NCBI GenBank assembly: GCA_963769215.1
Contig: CAVYKX010000029.1
Span: 34,058 to 98,057, forward strand
Source of the DNA: Candidatus Sulfomarinibacteraceae bacterium
GTDB taxonomy: Bacteria; Acidobacteriota; Thermoanaerobaculia; Thermoanaerobaculales; Sulfomarinibacteraceae
DNA length: 64,000 bases
Direction: 5' to 3'
Positions 7,807 through 63,096 of the stretch are shown here, one piece after another; position 1 is the first letter of the stretch, and every line of letters begins with the position of its first letter. The notes under the pieces were generated by a model. That model worked only from the letters and a program-made list of their open reading frames with translations. It was not told the origin of the DNA and did not search any database. The position numbers and the translations under genes were made by a program.

Positions 7807-7866
7807 CCACCCTCCCGCCCATTTCGGAATTCTGAATTAGGAATTAGGAATGCCACCCGCCCACCC
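7807..7866. repeat. box + heptamer microsatellite module (C-box / AT-rich heptamers / C-box)
   Basis: CCACCCTCCCGCCC - atttcggaattctgaattaggaattaggaatg - CCACCCGCCCACCC. Confidence 0.85.
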
Positions 7867-7916
7867 GATACCCGATGGGTGGATTTCTCATCCTCGCTTC
7901 AACCAACGAGCCGTTG

Positions 7917-7990
7917 GCGGGCCCTGAAGGACCCGCCTACAAGAGGAGCGCGCTAGATTAACGTGTAGGCGCGTCCTTGAGGGCGTTCCA
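7917..7990. repeat. pair of inverted ~27 nt REP-like motifs
   Basis: ggcgggccctgaaggacccgcctacaag and, in inverse orientation, gtgtaggcgcgtccttgagggcgttcca. The first motif can itself form a 9 bp hairpin with one mismatch. Confidence 0.6.
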
Positions 7991-8047
7991 ACGTCAAGCA
8001 TGGCAGTCAACGACAACAACCGTTGAGTCGGTCTTTTTTGATTGAAC

Positions 8048-8096
8048 GGGTGGTGGGTTGGGAATTCCTAATTCCTCATTCCTACTTCCTCATTCG
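8048..8096. repeat. box + heptamer microsatellite module (G-box then AATTCCT-type heptamers), inverted relative to 7807-7866
   Basis: GGGTGGTGGGTTGGG followed by aattcctaattcctcattcctacttcctcattcg. Confidence 0.85.
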
Positions 8097-8115: not shown

Positions 8116-8974
8116 ATGGGCAAAGCAGAGTGGGGCGTCGATCCGGAGTTTTTCGGTCCGCGGCACGCACACCGTGAGGGTCGCATCACGGAGCGTTTGG
8201 AGCGTGTTGTTCCCGAGCCCGGTCTCCACCTCGAGTGTGCGGCAGGAGTCGGATCCCTGTCTCTCACGCTGGCGAAAAAAGGGACACACCGTTATCTCGG
8301 CTGATCGCTCGCTGCGCTCCCTCAGGGTGCTCGCCGCACGAGCCGCGTCGGCCGAGACGGCCGAAAGGGTCCTCCCGGTGGTTGCCGACATCACCGCTCT
8401 GCCGTTTTCCGACGGAGTTTTCTCGAGCGCCACCAGCGCGGAAACCCTGGAACATATCCCCGGCCACGAAGTTGCGGTCGCCCAGCTGGCTCGCGTGCTC
8501 GAGGAAGGAGGCTGGCTGATCGGCACGGTCCCGGCCGGACCACAACAATGGTCGGACTGGGACGCCTGGGCGGGTCACCTGAGGCGTTACTCACATGAAT
8601 CGATGGCTGTCCTTCTCGAGGGCGCCGGTCTCGACGCCGAGGTCGTTGTCTGGGGTTGGCCGATGCTGCGGCTGTACGACGACCTCTTTCTCAAGCGGAT
8701 CAACCGCCGCCGTTTGACTCAGCGAGGCTCTGTGGAGGATGACGCGACCTTGAACCGGATATCCAGTCTCGGCCGGCGCCGCCATCTCGTGGCCATCGTT
8801 CGATCCGTTTTCGGCTTCGACCGTCTCTTCGACGGTTCTCCATGGGGGGTTGGTTTGCTGTTTTCCGCTCAGAAAAAGGGCTCATCCGCGCGCGGGGAAG
8901 CCGCATTCGAGCGGCGCAACGGAGTTGATCGCGCTCTTCTGCAGAAGCGCTTCCCGCAAAGGAGCCACCTTTAG
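8116..8974 (+). pseudogene. class I SAM-dependent methyltransferase, frameshifted at an A-run
   Basis: N-terminal part (..LECAAGVGSLSLTLAKKG, SAM-binding GxGxG) is in frame 1 and the continuation (HTVISADRS..LPFSDGVFSS..LEHIP) is in frame 2. The switch is at A6 run 8275-8280. The 3' end of the ORF runs into a repeat element. Confidence 0.75.
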
Positions 8975-9046
8975 CATTGACCGACCAAAGGGTCAGGATT
9001 TTTTTTGCGGTAAGGCCCGGACAATGCAAAAGATGGCACCTCCGTC
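8927..9046 (-). repeat. inverted-repeat (MITE/REP-like) module, subfamily V1, reverse orientation
   Basis: Contains ggagccacctttagcattgaccg ... cggacaatgcaaaagatggcacctccg. Same arms as copies at 46841-46972 and 52423-52552. Confidence 0.8.
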
Positions 9047-9086
9047 GGGCGAGGGTCCGCGCCGAGATCCTTCAGATTCATGACAC

Positions 9087-9172
9087 GGGTGTGCGGGTGG
9101 GAATTCAAAAATAAGAACACAAAACTCAAAACTGATGCGGTGGGCGGGTGGCAATTCGGAATTCCGAATGGG
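9087..9172. repeat. double box + microsatellite module
   Basis: GGGTGTGCGGGTGGG - aattcaaaaataagaacacaaaactcaaaactgat - GCGGTGGGCGGGTGG - caattcggaattccgaatggg. Confidence 0.85.
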
Positions 9173-9189: not shown

Positions 9190-9915
9190 CTAACGTCGAC
9201 TCCTCAGCTCGTCACGCATCTCGGATGGAAGGTACTTCGAACCCTCACGGAAGGTCAGTCCTGACACCTCATTGAGATGCAGGTTGAGGAAATCGTACGC
9301 CAACTGCGGACGTTTCTTGCTCACGTCGCGCAACACCCAACCTATCGCCTTGCGGATGAAAAACTCTTTCTCCGAAACCATCGTCGATGCAAACGATGCG
9401 AAGAGTTCGAAATCACCGCCTCCGGCACGCAGGGCGGGTAAAAGAGAGAGCATCGAGGCACGGCGGATCCAGAAATCACCGTCGATCGACCAGCGACGCA
9501 GGATCGGCTCCGCAACATCCGGTTCGCGCTCTATCAGCGGTGCCGCGATCTTGGTGCACAACCAGTCCACCAGCGCCCAGGTGTGGCTGCGGCGAAGCAG
9601 ATTCTCGACCAGATCCAGATCGATGACCTCGAGCTGCTTCACACGCCGTTCCAACAAGGCCACCGCCACCGCTTTCATCTCGAAGATGGGCGTCGACCAC
9701 AGCGCATGTACGAGCTGGATCAACTCGTCCCGGTCCATCGAAGGGTGTTTTTCGAGGAATGTTCGCGCCACAGCGCGCAGTGGTTTGGCCCCCACACCAT
9801 AAAACTCGAGGTCGCTTTTCAGATATGCTTTCGCGCCAGTTGCGCGCTCATCGTCATGCACAGCCCACAGCGCCGTCCTGAGTTCCTCTGCATGGCGAAG
9901 AGCATCGGTCTCCAC
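9190..9915 (-). CDS. DNA alkylation repair protein (AlkD-like HEAT-repeat family)
   Basis: 241 aa, all-helical, with hallmark stretches YLKSDLEFYGVGAKPLR, WALVDWL, FFIRKAIGWVLRD. Confidence 0.75.
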   Translation of the reverse strand: METDALRHAEELRTALWAVHDDERATGAKAYLKSDLEFYGVGAKPLRAVARTFLEKHPSMDRDELIQLVHALWSTPIFEMKAVAVALLERRVKQLEVIDLDLVENLLRRSHTWALVDWLCTKIAAPLIEREPDVAEPILRRWSIDGDFWIRRASMLSLLPALRAGGGDFELFASFASTMVSEKEFFIRKAIGWVLRDVSKKRPQLAYDFLNLHLNEVSGLTFREGSKYLPSEMRDELRSRR

Positions 9916-11580: not shown

Positions 11581-11816
11581 TCCACCCTCCCACGCAGCCG
11601 CAAGATGCAGGATGCAAAGATCCGCCCCCCACCCAGGAGAAACCGCAGATAACGCAGATGAACGCAGATTGTCGGAATTACACCGGCAGGATCCATCCAC
11701 CCGGAAAAGGGTCGCGGTACCCCGGTTCTTCATCTCGAATCTCGAATCTCGAATCTCGAATCTTGTATCTTGAATCTCGTATCTTGAATCTTGTATCTGG
11801 TGGGGTGGGTGGGTGG
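11581..11816. repeat. composite box/microsatellite tract
   Basis: C-box; gcaagat/gcaggat units; C-box; three ACGCAGATnn decamers (11641-11672); about 9 heptamers gaatctc/gtatctt (11731-11798); G-box GGTGGGGTGGGTGGGTGG abutting the stop of the downstream gene. Confidence 0.85.
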
Positions 11817-15350: not shown

Positions 15351-15493
15351 TCCCACCCACCCAGACGCCGGATGCCGGAGCGAATTCATCGATCGGCAGG
15401 TCCAGTTGTCAAGCAGATTCTGATCGTATCTGGTATCTGGGCGGACGGGTGGCTGGGCGGATCCGGTATCTGGGATCTGGGTGGGTGGCCGGG
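15351..15493. repeat. box + microsatellite tract
   Basis: CCCACCCACCCA; gccggat/gccggag units; gtatctg-type heptamers; G-boxes GCGGACGGGTGGCTGGGCGG and GTGGGTGGCCGGG. Confidence 0.8.
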
Positions 15494-15547: not shown

Positions 15548-16882
15548 ATGACACGACGATCAACCATCCTGGCCCTGGTAGTGCTTGTCGGCCTCGCGGG
15601 AGGCTGTGCCAAACAGGACCAGACGACAACGGATCCGGCCGAAGAGGCCTTCGAGGCCCTGAGGACGGCATGGGGAGAAGCGGAGACGACCGAGGCGAAA
15701 GTTGCTCTCGCCGAGGGCTATCTCGCTGACTTCCCGGACACAGAACACAGCGGATCGATGGCTGGAGCCATCGTCTACTACCAGGGCCACGAGCTCGAGG
15801 ATCCCCAGGGCGCCTACGATGTGGTGTCTGCCGCCCTCGAGAAGATTGAAGATCCGGAGCAGCGTTTCACCGTAAGCATGGAGCTGCTGAGCCTCTCTGA
15901 CTCGGTGGATGTGCCTCTCGACGTAGCGAAGGTCGCGAGCGACCTCAGCGCGGTGCGAGCGTTGACGTACGGAGAGGCGCAACAAGTTGCTGAGACTGCA
16001 GCCGATCTCGAGGCGTGGTCAGTGGCCGGAGAGCACGCCGCCGCCGCGGCCGTTCTGGCAACCCCGGAGGCCTATCAGGCTGACTACCCGGACCGCGAGT
16101 TCTCCGACGATGAGTTGGCCGAGCGCGCGCAGCGCCGCAAAGCGGCGTCTCTCGCCTACGAAGGATGGGCGCTGTACAACCTCGGAGATACCGAGGCTGC
16201 GTTTTCCCGTTTCGCGGAGTCCAGCGACGCCGGCAGCGTTACCTATATGGGTTCGCCCATGAATCCCCTCAACATCTTCTGGGGCCGTGCTGCCCTGAAT
16301 GAGGGCGACAACGATACAGCCGTCAAACTGCTCGGCCTTGAGACCCTCTTTGGCGAGGATCCAGCCGGCGCCAAACCGTATCTTCGCGAGGCATACGTCG
16401 CCAAGAACGGCGACGAAGAAGGCTTTGACGAATTCATGTGGGCAACCCGCAACGAACTCGCGACTCCTGTCGACGACTTCGAGTTGCTCGACTATGAAGG
16501 CAACGCCCATCGTCTGTCCGACGCCAGTGGCAAGGTGACCCTGCTCGCATTCTGGTTCCCCACGTGAGGCGGCTGCCGCGTGGAGTTGCCACGCCTGCAA
16601 CCTCTGTACGAGAAGTACCGGGACCAGGGATTCGAGATCATTGCAGTTGACGGAAAGAACGACACCGAACGGGCCACCAAGTTCATCGAAGAAAACGGCC
16701 TCACCTACACCATGCTCGAAAATGCCGAGGGCGAAGACGAGATCGTGGGCAATGTCTTCAAGGTTCGCGGCTACCCGTCGTCGTTCCTGATCGATCGGGA
16801 AGGCAAGGTGATGTACTTCCACTTCGGATTCGAAGCCGGAGACGAGGAGCACCTCGAGGAGGAGATTCTGAGTCTCCTGTAG
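15548..16882 (+). CDS. TlpA/ResA-like thiol:disulfide oxidoreductase lipoprotein with in-frame TGA (candidate selenocysteine, U340) in a UGGC redox motif
   Basis: AGGAGG RBS before ATG 15548 and lipobox LAGGC. ORFs 14261..16567 and 16580..16882 are in the same frame, separated only by TGA 16565-16567. Read-through gives VTLLAFWFPT-U-GGCRVELPRLQPLYEKY, which matches the FWAxWCxxC thioredoxin-fold pattern. Confidence 0.7.
16574..16599 (+). promoter_or_regulatory. candidate bacterial SECIS hairpin
   Basis: Upper stem GCGUGG/CCACGC (16578-16583 and 16589-16594) with loop AGUUG. Lower 3 bp stem UGC/GCA across a small internal loop. The 17 nt upper stem-loop starts 10 nt after the UGA. Confidence 0.5.
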
Positions 16883-16883
16883 A

Positions 16884-16930
16884 AATTTCGGATTTCGGAT
16901 TTCGGATTTCGAATTTGCCCCCGCCCACCC
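16884..16930 (+). repeat. heptamer microsatellite (ATTTCGG)n + C-box
   Basis: aaatttcggatttcggatttcggatttcgaatttg followed by CCCCCGCCCACCC. Same subfamily as 17809, 46753 and 62637. Confidence 0.9.
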
Positions 16931-16947
16931 GGGCGGGGGTTGTTCTT
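16918..16947 (+). terminator. rho-independent terminator after the TlpA-like gene
   Basis: Perfect 9 bp GC stem CCCCCGCCC-accc-GGGCGGGGG followed by ttgttcttc. Confidence 0.6.
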
Positions 16948-17050: not shown

Positions 17051-17253
17051 CTCCAACCACCCACCCAAACACCTTGAACCACGAAGGCTCGAAGGACACG
17101 AAGAACTCACAAAGGTTTTCTCAATGTTTTCCTGACTCATCAGAAGGGCGAACTCTGAAAACGTGGAAATTCCTGCCTCCGCGAACGCTCGTGAGGTGAT
17201 GGGCCAAGAAACTCCTTTGTGTTCCCTTGGTGTCTTTGTGACTTCGTGGTTGC
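17051..17253. repeat. C-box plus inverted pair of CGAAGG-type microsatellites flanking about 100 bp
   Basis: ccaaccacccaccc. Left arm gaaccacgaaggctcgaaggacacgaagaactcacaaagg (17076-17115) and right arm cctttgtgttcccttggtgtctttgtgacttcgtggttgc (17214-17253) are imperfect reverse complements. Confidence 0.7.
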
Positions 17254-17808: not shown

Positions 17809-17897
17809 AATTTCGATTAATTTCGGATTTCGGATTTCCGCCCTCCCGCTCACCGGAACAAGGCTTGAGGCGTGAGGCCTGGGGCTTGTGGGGCTCC
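17809..17897 (+). repeat. heptamer microsatellite + C-box, then degenerate (GGCTTGR)5
   Basis: tttcgattaatttcggatttcggatttcc-GCCCTCCCGC, then ggcttgaggcgtgaggcctggggcttgtggggctc, related to the array at 48763-48903. Confidence 0.8.
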
Positions 17898-17919
17898 GGA
17901 TAGCCACCCGGTAGACCGT

Positions 17920-18138
17920 CCGCAGAAGAGCACGTCCGGCGGAGGTGCCGTCTTCTGCATTGTCCGAATCGAAACGCCCAAAAAGAACCACGCGGTACAT
18001 CGCCCGCAGAAGAGCGCGCTCCTCGGAGCGTGCCAGTTTTCGCATTGTCCGGAGAGGCAAATTCAAGTAAATCGATCGGTCGGATCGGACAATGCGAAGG
18101 CTGGCAACTCTCGGGAAGCGCGTCTGCAGAAGGGCGCC
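17920..18138 (+). repeat. inverted-repeat module V1, about 1.5 copies
   Basis: CAGAAGAGCACG + left arm (ggaggtgccgtcttctgcattgtccg), then CAGAAGAGCGCG + second left arm (cgtgccagttttcgcattgtccg), then right arm cggacaatgcgaaggctggca + GGGAAGCGCG..CAGAAGGGCGCC. Confidence 0.8.

Positions 18139-18442: not shown

Positions 18443-18453
<11 letters not shown>
18205..18453 (-). CDS. glutaredoxin-family small redox protein (CPHC)
   Basis: ILVFTADGCPHCRELCADFDRRGVAYREINL..LPVV.. is a glutaredoxin/NrdH-like fold. The start is uncertain (GTG 18453 proposed) because the upstream part of the ORF is made of repeat sequence. Confidence 0.6.
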
Positions 18454-18581
<128 letters not shown>

Positions 18582-33436: not shown

Positions 33437-33491
33437 GTCCACAGTGTACCGATTCAATCGCGCTGTTCTGCGGATGCGTTCCCGCGAAGTT

Positions 33492-33600
33492 GCCACCCTT
33501 GACGATCTGACCGACCCGAGCCCTCACGACTTAGTTGCGTTGACTCCCAAAATCGTCAAAGATGGCACGCCCGACCAACGCGCTCTCCTGCGGGCGCCTT
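33492..33600 (-). repeat. inverted-repeat module, subfamily V2
   Basis: cccTTGACGATctg ... cccaaaATCGTCAAagatggcacgcccgaccaacgcgctctcctgcgg. Aligns with the reverse complement of 62783-62896. Confidence 0.8.
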
Positions 33601-33621
33601 GCTGAAATCCTTCGGGTTCAT

Positions 33622-33728
33622 GGGCGTGTGGGTGGAATCCCCTTTCTCCTTTTCTCCTTTTCTTCTTTTCAAGTACGGGCGGGTGGGCGGAAATCCAAAA
33701 TCTAAATTCCAAAATCTGAAATTTTCTC
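33622..33728. repeat. double box + microsatellite module
   Basis: GGGCGTGTGGGTGG - ctttctcc/ttttctcc units - GGGCGGGTGGGCGG - aaatccaaaatctaaattccaaaatctgaaatttt. Same layout as 9087-9172. Confidence 0.85.
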
Positions 33729-37453: not shown

Positions 37454-37461
37454 GGAAGGCT

Positions 37462-37575
37462 GAATTCTCAGTTCTCAATTCTTCATTCTCAAATCCCTGC
37501 CACCCTCCCATGAGATGGAGGATTGCCGGCAATTCAAAATTGAGAATTCAGAACAGGGATGGACTGGGAGGCTGG
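37462..37575. repeat. box + microsatellite tract
   Basis: gaattctcagttctcaattcttcattctcaaat - CCCTGCCACCCTCCC - .. aattcaaaattgagaattcagaac - agggatggactgggaggctgg. Confidence 0.8.
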
Positions 37576-45542: not shown

Positions 45543-46109
45543 ATGATGAAACGAACCGCCACCGGCGCCGTAGTCCTCATAACAGTCGTTTTCGTACTTT
45601 CGTGCTCCTCGAGCTCAATGCAGACTGACCATGACCACCAGGCAGATTTCAGCACCTACTCCTCATTTGCCTGGTTCTCGAACGCCGACAACGAACAGCC
45701 GTCGCCAACCGGCACGAATCAGATCATCGACCAACGCATCCGCCGTGCGATCGCTGCGAATGTCCTCTCCAAGGGGCTCACGCAGGCACCGCCCGAAAGC
45801 GCAGACCTCCTTGTCACCTACTATGTCTCCCTGAACCAACAATTGAGGATGTACTCCACCAGTTGGGGATACGGGTGGGGCTGGGGCGGGCCACACTGGG
45901 GATACGGATACGCATTCTGGCCCGGGTGGGGCCACACAACCGTTTCCACCTATCACGAAGGCTCGATCATCGTTGACATCGTCGATCGCGAGAAGGAGCA
46001 ATTGGTGTGGCGAGGGGTCGCAACCCGGGTCCTTGGCAAAAAGAGCTCATCCGAAGAGGAAATCGGCCAAACAGTAGAGCGGCTGATGTCTGATTTTCCC
46101 CCGATGTGA
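45543..46109 (+). CDS. DUF4136-like lipoprotein (paralog 1)
   Basis: Lipobox VLSC. Conserved frame DHD.QADFS.YSSFAW .. DLLVTYY .. EGSIIVDIVDREKEQLVWRG, with a W/G/Y-rich insert WGYGWGWGGPHWGYGYAFWPGWG. Confidence 0.6.
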   Translation: MMKRTATGAVVLITVVFVLSCSSSSMQTDHDHQADFSTYSSFAWFSNADNEQPSPTGTNQIIDQRIRRAIAANVLSKGLTQAPPESADLLVTYYVSLNQQLRMYSTSWGYGWGWGGPHWGYGYAFWPGWGHTTVSTYHEGSIIVDIVDREKEQLVWRGVATRVLGKKSSSEEEIGQTVERLMSDFPPM

Positions 46110-46180: not shown

Positions 46181-46711
46181 ATGAGGCAAACCCTGCAGCT
46201 CATCCTGGCGGCCGCCCTTCTATCGTCGGCCATCGGTTGCTCGACCATGACGGTCCGCGCCGACCACGATTCTCAGATCGATTTCGGCTCCTACTCGACG
46301 TTTGCCCTCTTCGAACGCCAGGAAAAGCAGAACCGACGGCCTCAGATGAGCCCTCTGGTCGATCGCCGGATCGCTTCGTCAATGGCCGACGATCTCAAGA
46401 GCAAAGGACTCCGTTCCGCCACCGCGAGGGAGTCCGACATTCTGGTTACCTTCTACACCGCGGTTCGAGAGCGGGTGGTGATCAACCGGGCAGGCTGGTA
46501 CGGCTGGGGGAGATGGGGCTGGCACGGCGGCGCATCCTGGGTCAACAGTTTCCCCGAGGGGACCCTTGTCATCGACATCATCGATCGCCGCAAGCGTGAG
46601 CTGGTGTGGCGAGGTGTCGGCCAGGGCGCCTTCAGTTCCTCCAACCCGTCGGACGAAAAGGTCGCAAAAAGAGTGGCGAAGATACTGCGGAGCTTCCCGC
46701 CGGCAGGATAG
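46181..46711 (+). CDS. DUF4136-like lipoprotein (paralog 2)
   Basis: Lipobox AIGC. DHDSQIDFGSYSTFAL .. DILVTFY .. EGTLVIDIIDRRKRELVWRG, with insert GWYGWGRWGWHGG. Confidence 0.6.
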   Translation: MRQTLQLILAAALLSSAIGCSTMTVRADHDSQIDFGSYSTFALFERQEKQNRRPQMSPLVDRRIASSMADDLKSKGLRSATARESDILVTFYTAVRERVVINRAGWYGWGRWGWHGGASWVNSFPEGTLVIDIIDRRKRELVWRGVGQGAFSSSNPSDEKVAKRVAKILRSFPPAG

Positions 46712-46713
46712 AT

Positions 46714-47058
46714 CCACCCAACCGCCCGGATGCCGGATGCCGGATACCGGCCCATTTCGGATTTCGGATTTCGGATTTCCGCCCACCCTCCCGGTGGAGA
46801 AACCGCAGATCACGCAGATTGACGCAGATAACTCTGTCGGCAGAAAAGCGCGTTGACCGGAGGTGCCATCTTTTGCATTGTCCGAGCCTCAGCGTGCAAT
46901 CCGGCCCGGTCAACCGGTCGGTCAATGCTAAAGGTGGCTCCTTGGCGGGAAGCGCGCACACAGAAGAGCGCGAACAACTCGAGGAGCGCCACGCGAACCC
47001 CGTGAGTTTCCCGCGAGACTGGCACTCGACCGACTTATCGGGAACGGGATCGGGATCG
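46714..47058 (+). repeat. mosaic intergenic element, full copy E1
   Basis: Order: C-box, (GCCGGAT)3, (ATTTCGG)3-4, C-box GCCCACCCTCCC, three CGCAGATnn decamers, CAGAAAAGCGCG, V1 inverted-repeat arms (46859-46884 and 46919-46941), CAGAAGAGCGCG, GGAGCGCCA tail, (GGGATC) repeats. Confidence 0.85.
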
Positions 47059-48761: not shown

Positions 48762-48762
48762 A

Positions 48763-48949
48763 GGCCTGGGGCTTGAGGCTTGGGGCTTGAGGCTTGGGGC
48801 TTGAGGCTTGGGGCTTGGGCTGGGCTTGGGGCTTGAGGCTTGGGGCTTGAGGCTTGGGGCTTGAGGCTTGGGGCTTGAGGCTTGGGGCTTGAGGCTTGAG
48901 GGGATCAATGGGTGGGTGACATTCCGAATTCCGAATTCCGAATTCTCAC
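48763..48949. repeat. 14 bp (GGCTTGA+GGCTTGG) tandem array of about 9-10 units, G-box, (AATTCCG)n
   Basis: ggcttgaggcttgg repeated from directly after the pckA stop to about 48903 with one irregular unit (gggcttgggctggg). Then gggatcaatGGGTGGGTGac and attccgaattccgaattccgaattc. Confidence 0.9.
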
Positions 48950-48971
48950 TACCTGCTAAAGTGCGGCCCCA

Positions 48972-51021: not shown

Positions 51022-52317
51022 GTGCGCGTTCGTTTAGAATCTATCGGCTGCCGCCTCAATATCGGTGAGATCGAAGCAATGGCGCGCGGCCTTACGGCGT
51101 CGGGCCACCGGGTTGTCGGCCCCGGCGAAAACGCCGAACTGTACATCCTGAATACCTGCTCCGTCACTTCCATCGCATCGAAAAAGTCCCGCCAGTTAGT
51201 CCGGCAGCTCAAGCGAGCCAACCCGGCGGCTGCTCTTATCGTCACCGGCTGCGACTCCGAGCTCACGCCAAACGAGATGGAGAAAATCGGTGTTGACCTG
51301 ATCGTCGGCAATGCCGACAAAGAAAATCTCCTCGGTCTCGCGGCGGAGCAGGGCCTGCTCCGCGAGCCCGAACCCGATCTCGACGCCGATTCAGTTTTCG
51401 GACCTGGAGGCGCATCTCGGACGAGAGCGTTCCTCAAGGTTCAAGACGGTTGCGACAATCGGTGCACGTTCTGTGTCACAACCATTGCCCGCGGCGCCGG
51501 TCGTTCGGTGCCGCAGGAAACGATTCTGGAAGAGGTCGGCAAAGTCCTGCGCCTCGGCTATCGAGAAATCGTTCTGAGTGGCGTCCATCTCGGATCCTAC
51601 GGCCACGATTTTGGCGACCGCCGCGGCCTGCAGCTTCTCGTCGAACGAATTCTCACCGAGACCGACATCCCGCGGCTTCGGCTGTCGTCTCTCGAACCGT
51701 GGGACCTCGACGCCGCTTTTTTCGAGCTCTTTGCGGATCCGAGGTTGTTGCCGCACATCCACCTCCCGCTCCAGAGCGGCTGCGACGCCACGCTCCGGAG
51801 GATGGCCCGTCGAACGGACCGCAAGGATTACTCAGAGCTTCTCGGACACGCCCGCAGGGCTGCTCCCGATCTCGCAGTCTCGACCGACCTCATTGTCGGG
51901 TTTCCCGGCGAGAACGACACCGAATTCGAAGAGTCCATCTCCTTCGTCGAGGAAATGGGGTTTTCGCGCCTTCACATCTTTCGATACTCGAAGCGTGAAG
52001 GAACCCTCGCCGCCACGATGCCCGGCCAGGTCCACGGACCCACGGCGCGGGAACGCAGCCGTCGACTGCACGAACTCGGCGCGGATCTCGAGCGAAGCTT
52101 CGCCACCCGGTTTGTCGGAAGGACCGTGGACGTTCTCTGGGAGACGGCCGAGGATCACGGCAGCGCCCTCAAATGGAGCGGGTTGACACCCCACTACGTG
52201 CGCGTCGCCACGACCACCCCGCCGGATAAAGATCTCCTCAACATCGTGACGCCCACCGAGATCGTCGAGGTAGTGCCGGGAGGAGTCGTTGGGAGAATTC
52301 GGAATTCGGAATTCTGA
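51022..52317 (+). CDS. mtaB: radical-SAM methylthiotransferase, MtaB/MiaB-like
   Basis: UPF0004 N-domain (GCRLNIGE..NTCSVT), radical SAM CDNRCTFC, TRAM-like C-terminus. The last ~8 codons (GRIRNSEF) and the stop lie inside a heptamer repeat. Confidence 0.8.
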   Translation: MRVRLESIGCRLNIGEIEAMARGLTASGHRVVGPGENAELYILNTCSVTSIASKKSRQLVRQLKRANPAAALIVTGCDSELTPNEMEKIGVDLIVGNADKENLLGLAAEQGLLREPEPDLDADSVFGPGGASRTRAFLKVQDGCDNRCTFCVTTIARGAGRSVPQETILEEVGKVLRLGYREIVLSGVHLGSYGHDFGDRRGLQLLVERILTETDIPRLRLSSLEPWDLDAAFFELFADPRLLPHIHLPLQSGCDATLRRMARRTDRKDYSELLGHARRAAPDLAVSTDLIVGFPGENDTEFEESISFVEEMGFSRLHIFRYSKREGTLAATMPGQVHGPTARERSRRLHELGADLERSFATRFVGRTVDVLWETAEDHGSALKWSGLTPHYVRVATTTPPDKDLLNIVTPTEIVEVVPGGVVGRIRNSEF

Positions 52318-52580
52318 ATTCGGAATATCCCACCCGCCCACCCGAGAGCGCCCACAGATCACCCAGATTGACCCAGACGACCCTGTTGCTCGCAGAAGAA
52401 CAGGCTGAACGGGCGTGCCATCCGCAGAAAAGCGCGTTCGGCGGAGGTGCCATCTTTTGCATTGTCCGAATCCAAACGTGCAAACGGGTACTGACCGCAG
52501 GTCGGTCAATGCGAAAGGTGGCTCCTTTGCGGGAAGCGCGTCCGCAGAAGAGATCGTTGAACTCGAAGCGCCAAGCCGCG
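52293..52580 (+). repeat. mosaic intergenic element, full copy E2
   Basis: (GGAATTC)n, C-box CCCACCCGCCCACCC, three CCCAGATnn-type decamers, CAGAAAAGCGCG, V1 arms (52443-52527), CGCAGAAGAG, GAAGCGCCAAGC tail. Confidence 0.85.
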
Positions 52581-53217: not shown

Positions 53218-53384
53218 GTTCGGTGGAATGTACCCCTTGACTCGTGGACCCGGATCACCGATTCTCGAGTCCCAAAAACCGCAGCGCAGGACGGATGGAT
53301 GGAGCCCGTCGGGTACGATAGAAGGAGGAGGCCGATGATCAAAATTGCGATCCCTTTGACGTTGGCTGGAGAGATTCCTTGAAA

Positions 53385-55985: not shown

Positions 55986-57009
55986 GTTGATGCCGCTCAT
56001 CGTCGGGGTGCCCGGGACGACCCTGAGTTCGGATGAACTCTCCGTATTGGAGAGAGTCCAGCCCGCAGGCGTGATTCTCTTTTCGCGCAACATCGAGACC
56101 GCCGAGCAGACCAGGAATCTCGTCGCCGAGTTCAGGCAACTCGAACCACGTCCCTTTGTCGCCGTCGATCTCGAGGGCGGTCTCGTCAACAGACTCTCAG
56201 CTGTATGGGGAGATCTCCCAACACCCGCCGCCGCCGGAGCGGCCGGCGAGCGTGCGGTCCGCGCTCTCGGTCAAGCGGCCGGGGCCGCCTGTCGAAACCT
56301 CAGCATCGATCTCGACCTGGCACCTGCGGTGGATCTCTCCTGCCCGGGCGGCTGTCTGTGTGAACAGGAGCGCTGTCTGAGCGATGACCCCAACCGCGCC
56401 GGCGAGCTCGCAAAGGTGTTTGTCGAAGGTCTCGCCGAGTGGGGTGTCACAGGCTGTGCCAAGCACTTTCCCGGCCTCGGGCCCGTGCCCGGTGACACCC
56501 ACGAGGAGCTTCCGGTGCTCGATCTCAATGCCGAAGAACTCCAGCGCCACCTCTCGGTTTTCGAGGAACTCGGGCCGATAATCCCGGTGGTCATGGTGGG
56601 TCACGTTGTGGTGCCCGGACTCGGAGAAGCCGACAGGCCCGCATCCCTGTCGCGGACGGTCGTTGAACGCGCCGCCACTCTCCCCGGATCTCCCGTCGTC
56701 ATCGCCGACGACCTCGAGATGGGTGCTCTCGACAATTACGGATCGATGGCCGAACGTGTCGAAGCGGCGATCCATGCGCGCAACCACGGCGTCCTGATCT
56801 GCAACGCGTTCGACCAGCTCGAGCCCATCATGGCTCACCTCACCGAACTCGGAGGCGTCGATTCAACCATCTCCACGCGAATGCAGGAGATGTCGGCTCG
56901 CATGGGGACACTGCGAACCGAGGTCCGACAGCGCGCCGCCGCCGTTCCTGCGCCCAGCGACTCCACGGTCGAAGAACTGTGGCAGCACGCGCGCCGCGAA
57001 GCCCGCTGA
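55975..57009 (+). CDS. nagZ: beta-N-acetylhexosaminidase (GH3, NagZ-like)
   Basis: [41 protein letters not shown]. The start may be the internal ATG 55990. Confidence 0.8.
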
Positions 57010-57020
57010 CGCCACTCCGC

Positions 57021-57190
57021 GGATTCTGGATTTCAGATTTTAGATTTCAGATTTGCCCCCACCCACCCCCGTCGTTCGAGGACAAAGGCTGGCCAGATTC
57101 ATGGGCGGTGCGGTCGGGAAATCTGAAATCCAAATTCTACAATCCAAAATTCATGAATGGGCGGCATTCCTCATTCCTCATTCCTAATTC
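57021..57190. repeat. box + microsatellite tract (three microsatellites, three boxes)
   Basis: ggattct/ggatttc/agatttt/agatttc units, CCCCCACCCACCCCC; then ..agattcatGGGCGGTGCGGTCGGG, aaatctgaaatccaaattctacaatccaaaatt, GGGCGG, cattcctcattcctcattcctaattcc. Confidence 0.85.
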
Positions 57191-57215
57191 CCCGTTCCTC
57201 TGCCAAAATGTTCCC

Positions 57216-62636: not shown

Positions 62637-63096
62637 AGGATTTCGGATTTCGGATTTCGGATTTCCACCCACCCGCCCCCGGAGGAACCACAGAGACACA
62701 GAGGGCACGGAGAGAATCACAGAGATCATCTTGACCGTTGTCCTGGAATCCCCCGGTAAAAACTCTGGCGTCAGGCTCCAGGTGGGAAGCTCGTCTGCAG
62801 AACAGCGCATTGATCGGACGTGCCGTCCTTGACGATTTTGGGAGTACCAGCTTCCAAGTCGGGAGCGCATTGGGTCCATAAGATCGTCAAGGGGGGTCAA
62901 ACCGCCGGTGGCTGCGATCTGCGGCCCAGGATTTGTCTTCAGACGAATCCATGGGACGCCCGCAGGCGACGGTGCTTCACGGCGGCCAAAGGCCGCCGGT
63001 AATCACGCGGTGTCGCGTTCGCAAAAGAGCGCGACCAACCGTGGAGCGCCAAGCCATCGATCTCGGCCGTCGGGAACGGGATCGGGATCGGGTTCG
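62637..63096 (+). repeat. mosaic intergenic element, full copy E4 (V2 inverted-repeat subfamily)
   Basis: (GGATTTC)4, C-box CCACCCACCCGCCCCC, CACAGAG-type short repeats, GGGAAGCTCG..CAGAACAGCGC, V2 arms ccttgacgat (62827-62836) and atcgtcaagg (62883-62892), CAAAAGAGCGCGACCAAC..GGAGCGCCAAGC tail, (GGGATC) repeats 63070-63096. Confidence 0.85.

Follow-up and report, generated by a model that had tools for sequence, protein, structure and literature searches.

The stretch of DNA analysed here (the window) covers 64,000 nucleotides of a contig from Candidatus Sulfomarinibacteraceae bacterium, a member of the Acidobacteriota. Its G+C content is 58–67%, and its genes are ordinary housekeeping genes (among them pckA, mtaB, mutS, feoB, the nqr operon, rnd, ybeY, phoH, dus and urocanase); no tRNA or tmRNA gene is found in the window. 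The intergenic regions carry a family of mosaic repeats, in which microsatellite arrays and short boxes are arranged around a hairpin core. The family is real and lies far above chance. Compared to dinucleotide shuffles of the window, the 22-nt core arm GTGCCATCTTTTGCATTGTCCG (up to 3 mismatches) has 5 matches against 0.00 expected, the 13-nt box GCAGAAGAGCGCG (up to 1 mismatch) has 9 against 0.35, and the C-box pattern CCNCCCNCCC has 31 against 5.4. The shared blocks were recovered by repeat finders, and every module was placed by a regular-expression map. At least seven hairpin cores and about 17 heptamer/C-box units are present in the 64 kb.

Across the window and about 40 metagenome contigs, the 46 distinct cores show a near-invariant module order, which runs heptamer array, C-box, (CGCAGAT)3, [box-hairpin-box2]n, box, tail and (GGGAYC)n. 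The polarity was counted for these cores, all of the V1 type (see below), with modules up to 300 nt upstream or downstream in the orientation of the core. The C-box is found upstream 26 times and never downstream, the heptamer array 25 times upstream and once downstream, and the CGCAGAT triplet 13 times upstream and never downstream. On the other side, the tail is located upstream twice and downstream 11 times, and the hexamer tract is downstream in all 11 cases (0 upstream). The metagenome copies match the order in the window and add to it. The 5′ end of the mosaic is formed by (C-box)-heptamer array-C-box, at times doubled, followed by GGAGAAAC and (CGCAGATNN)3. The middle consists of one to three units of the form GCAGAAGAGCGCG-N8-hairpin-UUUG-CGGGAAGCGC-N4, and the 3′ end of a closing GCAGAAGAGCGCG, the tail GGAGCGCCAAGC and the (GGGAYC)n tract. 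Within the mosaic, one unit of about 120 nt, GGGAAGCGCG-N4-GCAGAAGAGCGCG-N8-[hairpin], is the part that is old and constrained. An earlier sequence-only reading of this DNA had placed three full copies and several partial ones, and they are located where it put them; the shuffles and the polarity also bear out its view that the shared module order is genuine and not a chance juxtaposition.

The heptamer sequence differs from site to site (ATTTCGG, AATTCGG, CCGGATG, AGGCTTG and others), and the CGCAGAT repeats are phased at 9–10 nt. The C-box, (C3N1)3–4, is a G-quadruplex motif with one-nucleotide loops on the opposite strand (for example at 52329–52343, 7853–7866 and 33677–33690), and the sense strand itself has a G3N3 quadruplex motif in the (GGGAYC)n tract (63072–63092). 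The window has 13 G-quadruplex-like (G4-like) motifs, compared to about 6 in shuffles. The modules are separable, as there are a mosaic without a core (11581–11816), a core on its own in one related locus (L001), and lone heptamer/C-box units in many intergenic regions of the window. Several readings of individual modules were rejected. The C/G ratio of the 5′ modules is only 0.76–1.31, with the C-box alone being C-rich, which leaves a Rho utilization (rut) site as a minor possibility. The sequence of the CGCAGAT repeats does not fit a DnaA box. The motif GGTGCCA is not enriched (8 occurrences against 7.8 expected), and the idea of an uptake sequence (DUS/USS) was dropped for this reason.

Three full copies lie on the + strand. 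In element A, the 5′ modules (46712–46792) begin right after the stop codon of a DUF4136 gene and contain a C-box-like CCACCCAACCGCCC, (CCGGATG)3.6, (ATTTCGG)3.7 and the C-box CCGCCCACCCTCCC. They are followed by GGAGAAAC and the three 9–10 nt repeats (CGCAGATNN)3 at 46796–46829, and by a V1 unit (46840–46972) with box1 at 46840–46852, the left arm at 46859–46884, the loop, the right arm at 46919–46941, box2 at 46947–46956 and box3 at 46960–46972. The tail GGAGCGCCACGC is at 46983–46994 and the hexamer tract GGGAACGGGATCGGGATC at 47040–47057. In element B, the 5′ modules (52295–52383) consist of (GAATTCG)4.6, with the mtaB stop codon (52315–52317) inside, the C-box CCCACCCGCCCACCC (52329–52343) and then (CCCAGATNN)3. 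A truncated unit (box and GGGCGTGCCATC, 52391–52422) precedes the V1 unit, which has box1 at 52424–52436, arms at 52443–52468 and 52503–52525, box2 at 52531–52540 and box3 at 52544–52556; the tail is at 52565–52576. In element C, the 5′ modules (62638–62730) are (GGATTTC)4, the C-box CCACCCACCCGCCCCC and (CACAGAGNN)n. The V2 unit (62783–62896) has a box2-like segment at 62784–62793 and a box at 62797–62809, with the left arm starting at 62817 and the right arm ATCGTCAAGGGGGG ending at 62896. Its right flank is split by a nested hairpin module of 104 nt (62897–63000), an addition to the full copy described earlier at 62637–63096. The 3′ part (63001–63095) contains the V2 right flank AATCACGCGGTG, a box at 63021–63033, the tail GGAGCGCCAAGC at 63043–63054 and the hexamer tract at 63072–63095.

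The remaining copies are less complete or inverted. Element D (8927–9172, − strand) follows the stop of an alkD-like gene (9190–9915, − strand). It has a heptamer array and C-box at 9142–9172, a second C-box-like segment at about 9085–9100, and a V1 unit with the left arm at 9018–9044, the right arm at 8961–8983, box2 at 8946–8955 and box3 at 8930–8942. Its 3′ part overlaps the end of a convergent methyltransferase open reading frame (ORF; 8174–8974). Element E (11581–11816), listed earlier as a partial copy, does have C-box, heptamer and CGCAGAT modules, but no core. On the + strand it carries C-boxes, (GCAAGAT/GCAGGAT) repeats and (CGCAGATNN)3, and these are opposed by (ATCTCGA)8.6 and a G-box (11799–11816); read on the − strand, the G-box is a C-box, and it directly follows the stop of a GGDEF gene. 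Element F (17809–18138, + strand) follows the stop of an RF-1-domain gene and contains (ATTTCGG)2.7, a C-box, (GGCTTGR)n and a box. This partial copy is also present as noted, with two cores to be told apart in it: a V1 half core (17941–17982) fused to a V2-type right flank, with a box at 18006–18018, and a full hairpin of the V3 type (arms at 18027–18051 and 18086–18110, box2 at 18113–18122, box3 at 18127–18138). Element G (33456–33728, − strand; model score 64 bits) has heptamers at 33690–33723, a C-box at 33677–33690, (GGAGAAAA)n and a second C-box-like segment. Its V2a hairpin has box1 at 33579–33591, the left arm from 33568 downwards, the right arm ATCGTCAAGGGTGGCA at 33491–33506 and box3 at 33459–33471.

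Heptamer/C-box units without a core are far more numerous than was first listed, and are found at 7807–7866, 8045–8095, 15353–15488, 16885–16940, 17057–17066, 18450–18580, 37454–37553, 48762–48960 and 57007–57200. The first two of them lie in a divergent intergenic region (7807–8095), the one on the + strand and the other inverted, with a doublet of GTAG-type repetitive extragenic palindromes (REPs) between them (7912–7993). Such GTAG-tagged, REPIN-like doublets form one module of the mosaic, and another is present in a related locus (L027:8810–8890). The unit at 18450–18580 has the order C-box, (AATTCGG)4.7, C-box, 20 nt, G-box and (AATTCCG)4.6, and its arms of 47 nt are 89% complementary. 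Directly after the pckA stop come about 20 copies of AGGCTTG (48762–48901, with a 14-mer super-unit AGGCTTGGGGCTTG), then GGGGATC, a G-box and, inverted, an (ATTCCGA)3.6 array that reaches the start of tauE. Two relatives (L042 and L043) have a hairpin instead of these repeats at the 3′ site of pckA.

The core is a hairpin of about 85 nt, with a stem of 20–26 bp, an invariant base (GCCA/UGGC) and a poorly conserved loop of roughly 30–40 nt (about 35 nt). The mean pairwise identity among 34 copies of V1 is 0.99 for the left arm, which was the search pattern, 0.97 for the right arm, which was not used for the search, 0.95 for box2, 0.78 for box1, 0.77 for box3, 0.52 for the loop and 0.40 for the spacer. 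As in a miniature inverted-repeat transposable element (MITE), terminal inverted repeats (TIRs) flank a short non-coding interior (arms 97–99% conserved, interior 52%). U·U mismatches recur unchanged in V1, and the nucleotide opposite one of them varies freely (T, G, A or C). The subfamilies number at least six, V1 to V4 together with V5 and V6 in L042, as well as a related hairpin in L047, where the sequence-only reading had distinguished two. The V2 stem, UGCCAUCUUUGACGAU / AUCGUCAAGGGUGGCA, has 15–16 bp instead of the 10 bp assigned to it before. In the folds of the window copies, the palindromic halves of the boxes (CTGCAG, GCGCGC) prolong the helix outwards. The segment GGAGGUG pairs with CUCC at the base of the V1 stem; as GGAGG is confined to V1 and missing from V2–V6, small ORFs or a sequestered Shine-Dalgarno sequence were rejected. 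A CRISPR array was also rejected, as the conserved arms are inverted and not direct, and the loops keep a residual common consensus. At an orthologous copy, the loop in L036 differs from that in the window at 2 of 34 positions. The loops at truly orthologous copies (L036, L006) are no more divergent than the flanks, and are therefore neutral rather than hypervariable.

The helix is maintained across the subfamilies by compensatory change. All of the subfamilies have the GCCA/UGGC base, and the higher positions of the stem differ through compensatory changes. Among 13 representatives (subfamilies V1–V6 and L047), 96.6% of the cells are paired and 11 of the 16 pairs are changed on both sides. 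For these arms, chosen as inverted repeats, the covariation score is 0.526, compared to 0.186 in shuffles (0 of 500 reach 0.526) and at most 0.156 with slid partners. The earlier suggestion that sequence, and not the hairpin alone, is conserved in the arms holds within V1; across subfamilies, it is the structure that is conserved, except for the GCCA/UGGC base. The wobble pairs are one-sided, with 18 U-G cells, in which U is always in the 5′ arm, compared to 2 C·A cells, which would be wobbles of the other strand. Moreover, the sense strand, as set by the module order, folds better in all six of the window copies tested, by 5 to 21 kcal/mol, and its fold is the more stable in 13 of 16 representative stems. 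The model scores of the window copies in sense and antisense are 152 and 45 bits (element B), 143 and 41 (A), 135 and 49 (D) and 111 and 38 (F). The one-sided wobbles and better sense folds favour selection on a single strand, which may be that of a transcript or of a single-stranded DNA intermediate. The evidence for structural selection on the hairpin is clear.

The position of the cores relative to genes was assessed with neighbour orientations from crude gene calls. Ten cores lie between convergent genes, six between tandem genes in co-orientation, three between tandem genes in anti-orientation and one between divergent genes. The cores therefore prefer gene 3′ ends, and their orientation relative to transcription is weakly supported. 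The start of an element often coincides with the stop codon of the preceding gene, and elements A, B and C have a downstream gene in the same orientation. In mtaB, it is the heptamer array that encodes the final six codons and the stop (..IRNSEF*; window 52295–52317), and this is also the case in L048 (1667–1686), an 84%-identical relative from another metagenome. Because the mtaB stop is inside the array, changes in array length could alter the C-terminus of MtaB. Sigma-70 consensus promoters number at most 1 per 20 kb, compared to a chance expectation of 3.2–3.4, and none is found in the scanned intergenic regions. The window scans find no convincing intergenic intrinsic terminator and no match on a core, whereas canonical terminators are present in related contigs (L001, at about 790–815, and L026). 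The core itself has a loop of about 35 nt and its stem is followed by CUCCUUUGCGGG. No U-tract follows the hairpin, so that the term terminator-like, as applied earlier, is not supported in the canonical sense. A sigma-54 promoter reading of TGGCAC/TGGCTC...TTGC was rejected by inspection, as the spacing is wrong.

A scan for the core arm in one genome per species gives one match, in the metagenome-assembled genome (MAG) ‘Acidobacteria bacterium Ww181’, where the core stands alone after a classical terminator. The same scan of metagenomes finds 40 contigs, 39 of which are from one JGI series from coastal sediment (Ga0316187–Ga0316201). At least 13 of the 40 have a contig end no more than 150 nt from the core, as a repeat that interrupts assembly would produce. 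The named relatives of MtaB are from Acidobacteriota MAGs, at about 72–73% identity. The gene order pckA-tauE-mtaB-HD-mutS is kept in L042 (PckA 88% identical) and L043 (PckA 81%). In L042, V5 and V6 hairpins lie on both sides of pckA and 3′ of mtaB (V6b), and no heptamers or C-boxes are found at this locus. In L043, unique hairpins lie 3′ of pckA, mtaB and mutS, with stems of 21–28 bp, loops of 31–36 nt and wobbles on the sense strand; the one 3′ of mtaB has a unique stem of 26 bp at the site where the window has V1. This locus has (GGGAYC)n-G-box-heptamer units of its own. In L048 (MtaB 84%), heptamers, a C-box and a core arm are located 3′ of mtaB. The hairpin thus recurs at orthologous gene ends (mtaB, pckA) while its sequence changes, in relatives whose proteins are 73–88% identical, and its presence at matching gene ends in L042 and L043 indicates that it predates, and is more widely distributed than, the V1 sequence or the outer modules. 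The many sites with the same arms in one genome require homogenisation or replacement.

Comparison between near-identical strains shows turnover of the units. L003 (flanks 94% identical) has V3 and V1 at the site of a single V2 in the window. L026 is 94–100% identical up to the left arm, but from the loop onward it has a different module allele and a different downstream gene. As its homology ends in the hairpin loop, the breakpoint of a rearrangement lies within the core, breaking synteny. The half core of element F (at 17945) is a deletion relative to L013, joining a V1 loop to a V2-type flank, and L014 has V1 units in tandem. The nested insert of 104 nt is found at the same exact position in the V2 unit of element C and in a V4 unit of L016, and is missing from the V2 units of L013 and L004. 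The stretch between the two heptamer/C-box units is replaced in L006, with an inverted CGCAGAT module in place of the REP doublet at 7912–7993. These cassette swaps, the site-specific nested insert and the synteny break in the core show mobility or recombination at the DNA level. Replacement, deletion and clean presence or absence of a nested module are observed among the strains, while no simple pair of empty and filled core sites was found. No variable target-site duplication is visible in the orthologous comparisons, the flank being the same GCAGAAGAGCGCG box everywhere. The comparison of related genomes, proposed earlier as a check, returns both hairpins at orthologous gene ends and turnover between strains.

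Searches for the identity of the family were negative. No Rfam family matches anywhere in the window at the gathering score, in agreement with the uncatalogued status proposed before, and permissive thresholds give generic hairpins only (E-value 0.28 or higher). The repeat sequences have no match in viral contig and plasmid collections, and no paper containing them was found by a full-text sequence search. Pfam identifies housekeeping genes only, and no transposase or integrase, among about 50 ORFs of the window, and a scan for the RAYT motif in six-frame translations of the window and all related loci gives no match. The earlier statement that the window has no transposase stands for these ORFs and for this motif scan, and none was found in about 190 kb of related loci either. 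A search for a parent insertion sequence (IS) returned 41 pattern matches, in all of which the arms are about 85 nt apart or truncated; no copy has a gene between its arms.

Some observations concern the neighbourhood of the elements. The gene before element A is one of two tandem DUF4136 lipoprotein paralogues (45543–46109 and 46181–46711) between the CBS gene and pckA. Neither is present at this position in L042, and L043 has one elsewhere, after the HD gene. At 53336–53383, only the first 11 or so codons of a small DUF4136-like lipoprotein gene remain. The whole gene is found in the near-identical strain contig L036 (593–1093), which is about 500 bp longer here, and the deletion in the window joins at the microhomology GACGTTGGCTG; the 500 bp in L036 were for this reason rejected as an inserted element. 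L043 also carries another inverted-repeat element in two copies within 7 kb (9500–9660 and 16100–16255), with hexamer microsatellites, (CCCGTN)n and (GGGACN)n, as arms and an AT-rich centre. In the flanks of L042, an IS66-like GTAAGCG end was considered and rejected, as there is no inverse copy at the other end.

We tentatively favour the reading that the family is a lineage-specific mosaic similar to BIME (bacterial interspersed mosaic element), BOX and Correia repeats, and that its hairpin is a selected, probably co-transcribed 3′-end structure as well as a piece of recombining or mobile DNA. The compensatory changes, the one-strand wobbles and the recurrence at orthologous gene 3′ ends speak for selection on the hairpin in single-stranded form, of which a transcript is the simplest case. 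The unit would be transcribed with the upstream gene and fold in the 3′ untranslated region, where its two-turn helix may set or protect the 3′ end of the mRNA, as a barrier to 3′ exonucleases, a target of double-strand RNases, or a non-canonical structure for pausing or termination. At the DNA level, the units would multiply in tandem, become homogenised and pass between sites, through ectopic recombination or gene conversion or with a trans-acting enzyme from outside the window. Modules may insert at preferred positions within other modules, which would give the fixed polar order. The mosaic probably shapes mRNA 3′ ends and promotes genome rearrangement. In an extended form of this proposal, which we consider unlikely, the polar grammar of microsatellite array, G-quadruplex/i-motif box, phased 9–10-mers, hairpin and G-rich hexamer tract would be a composite system of non-canonical termination and 3′-end processing that has largely replaced intrinsic terminators and is kept uniform throughout the genome by a dedicated enzyme recognising the GCCA/UGGC foot; the repeats would then be a host-domesticated system, not junk or a plain MITE.

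Several points weigh against the 3′-end structure. Transcription, the role as RNA and the manner in which the units spread are what we infer from the DNA. The orientation test with tandem pairs is weak (6 compared to 3), and for two copies in the window (at 62.8 kb and 33.5 kb), both of them in divergent regions, there is no upstream gene in the same orientation. The lack of a U-tract after the stem means that the hairpin is not a classical terminator, and a simple exonuclease barrier does not explain a loop of roughly 30–40 nt. Covariation of the arms is also expected for terminal inverted repeats that must be bound by one protein, and co-evolving terminal repeats would yield the same pattern. 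Common ancestry or a strand bias in mutation could account for part of the wobble asymmetry. Finally, L045, L046 and several other relatives show no comparable hairpin, and in several the space after pckA is too short for one, which limits the feature to one clade.

The possibilities raised by the sequence-only reading, a mobile element, a structured non-coding RNA family or a protein-binding array, are narrowed by these data, and the choice among them is not settled. The main rival, which we regard as possible but less probable, is that the core is a non-autonomous mobile element of the MITE, REPIN or Correia kind, moved by a transposase from another part of the genome that would bind to the hairpin or its arms. 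One candidate would be a Y1 HUH enzyme of the RAYT or TIRYT type, which is known from Acidobacteria; the module order would arise from target preference, and any effects on RNA would be by-products. The many copies with near-identical arms and divergent interiors, the discrete subfamilies and the contig breaks at copies are all in keeping with such an element. So are the exchange of cassettes between 94%-identical strains, the nested insert present or absent at one exact position in two subfamilies, and the GTAG-type REP doublets inside the same mosaics (7912–7993 and L027). A single-stranded DNA intermediate would also account for the one-strand wobble bias, and Acidobacteria are reported to have Y1 transposases flanked by TIRs that form repeat families as well (PMC3733652). 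However, no transposase was found in the window or the related loci, no copy has a gene between the arms, and the direct repeat that flanks the units is the same 13-mer at every site instead of a variable target duplication. The loops are almost randomised while the arms are intact in every copy, which points to constraint or conversion acting on each copy and not to a recent burst. Moreover, the hairpins at matching gene ends in relatives have different sequences, and the unique ones in L043 could not be served by a sequence-specific transposase. Mobility and the favoured 3′-end structure are not exclusive of each other, as REPs show.

A purely DNA-level role, as an array of structure-forming or protein-binding sites for a nucleoid protein, gyrase or a binder of G-quadruplexes or cruciforms that would organise supercoiling, replication or transcription boundaries, is in our view quite improbable. 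The excess of quadruplex motifs in C-boxes and (GGGAYC)n tracts, the phasing of the CGCAGAT repeats and the conservation of box2 and the stem base as sequence would suit it, and a loop kept at about 35 nt is what one would expect of long palindromes that have to escape cruciform cleavage. E. coli BIMEs bind gyrase and IHF. On the other hand, the G-U asymmetry and the compensatory changes indicate pairing of a single strand, the stem sequence is free between subfamilies, unlike that of a fixed duplex binding site, and the binding protein is hypothetical. It is still harder to see each unit as a small RNA gene in its own right or as a leader that regulates the downstream gene in cis, and we regard this as very improbable. 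Such a role would agree with the stable, conserved hairpin, with the co-oriented downstream genes of elements A, B and C, and with the likeness of GGAGGUG/CUCC in the V1 stem to a sequestered Shine-Dalgarno sequence. But GGAGG is absent from the other subfamilies, most copies face a convergent gene, the scanned regions have no promoter-like sequence upstream and no terminator downstream, and there is no match in Rfam.

To our knowledge, mosaic extragenic repeats have been studied almost wholly in a handful of Proteobacteria and Firmicutes. The present lineage, which is uncultured, poorly known and from marine sediment, carries an unusually dense and strictly ordered mosaic, of interest for its structurally selected hairpin, the recurrence of the hairpin at matching gene ends and its role as a hot spot of rearrangement between strains. 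If the role in RNA is true, the hairpin would reveal how bacteria of this kind end their transcripts, and stabilise them, in the absence of classical terminators. In practical terms, the family breaks metagenome assemblies, and it could serve as a marker of the lineage and as a covariance model for annotation.

The family is uncatalogued and new, while the kind of repeat is already known from E. coli, pneumococcus and Neisseria. As expected from the placement near BIMEs, REPs and MITEs in the sequence-only reading, the repeats are extragenic, multi-copy, modular and variable between strains, and are grouped with other conserved motifs in recurring arrangements. Like the BIMEs (REP/PU) of E. 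coli and its relatives, they are high-copy mosaics outside genes that combine imperfect palindromes and other short conserved motifs in a set alternation, lie mostly at the 3′ ends of genes and are sites of rearrangement; co-transcription and effects on mRNA stability or attenuation would be further likenesses, predicted here from sequence. GTAG-type REP doublets are even present as a module. The core itself is different from a REP, a palindrome of 20–40 nt with an unpaired GTAG/CGTC tag, as its arms start with GGAGGTGCC or GGTGCCA and have no tag. The hairpin is much larger (85 nt, with arms of 20–26 bp and a loop of about 35 nt), microsatellite arrays, G4-type C-boxes and a strict 5′-to-3′ polarity are added, and no RAYT was found in the window or the related loci.

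The Correia/NEMIS elements of Neisseria (ERIC and RUP are similar MITEs) also have inverted arms of about 26 bp, a less conserved interior, subfamilies and differences between strains, and form long hairpins when co-transcribed, as is presumed for the present repeats. The Neisseria hairpins are cut by RNase III. In comparison, the present family has no TA target duplication, sequence similarity to these elements or known parent IS, and its units are in tandem with conserved direct-repeat boxes. The BOX elements of Streptococcus pneumoniae are likewise modular, with a fixed order (boxA, n boxB, boxC), a variable internal number and stable predicted RNA structures, but the modules are unrelated in sequence, and in the present family a long hairpin forms the internal module, with microsatellites and C-rich boxes on the outside. 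The STRR repeats of cyanobacteria and the TAACTGA repeats of Beggiatoaceae are intergenic heptamer arrays beside gene ends (PMC4679880). They share with the present arrays the short 7-nt tandem repeat, the location and a copy number that varies among strains; here, however, the heptamer varies by site, is coupled to a C-box and is merely an outer module of a larger mosaic. The TIR families linked to TIRYT genes in Acidobacteria (PMC3733652), compared here by their published description only, are similar in phylum, in moderate abundance, in inverted repeats unrelated to GTAG REPs and in the occurrence of dimers and clusters, but no TIRYT gene is linked to the present arms. What is new relative to all of these systems is the strict polar grammar that links microsatellites and G4-type boxes with a long, constrained hairpin, in a phylum that has been little studied.

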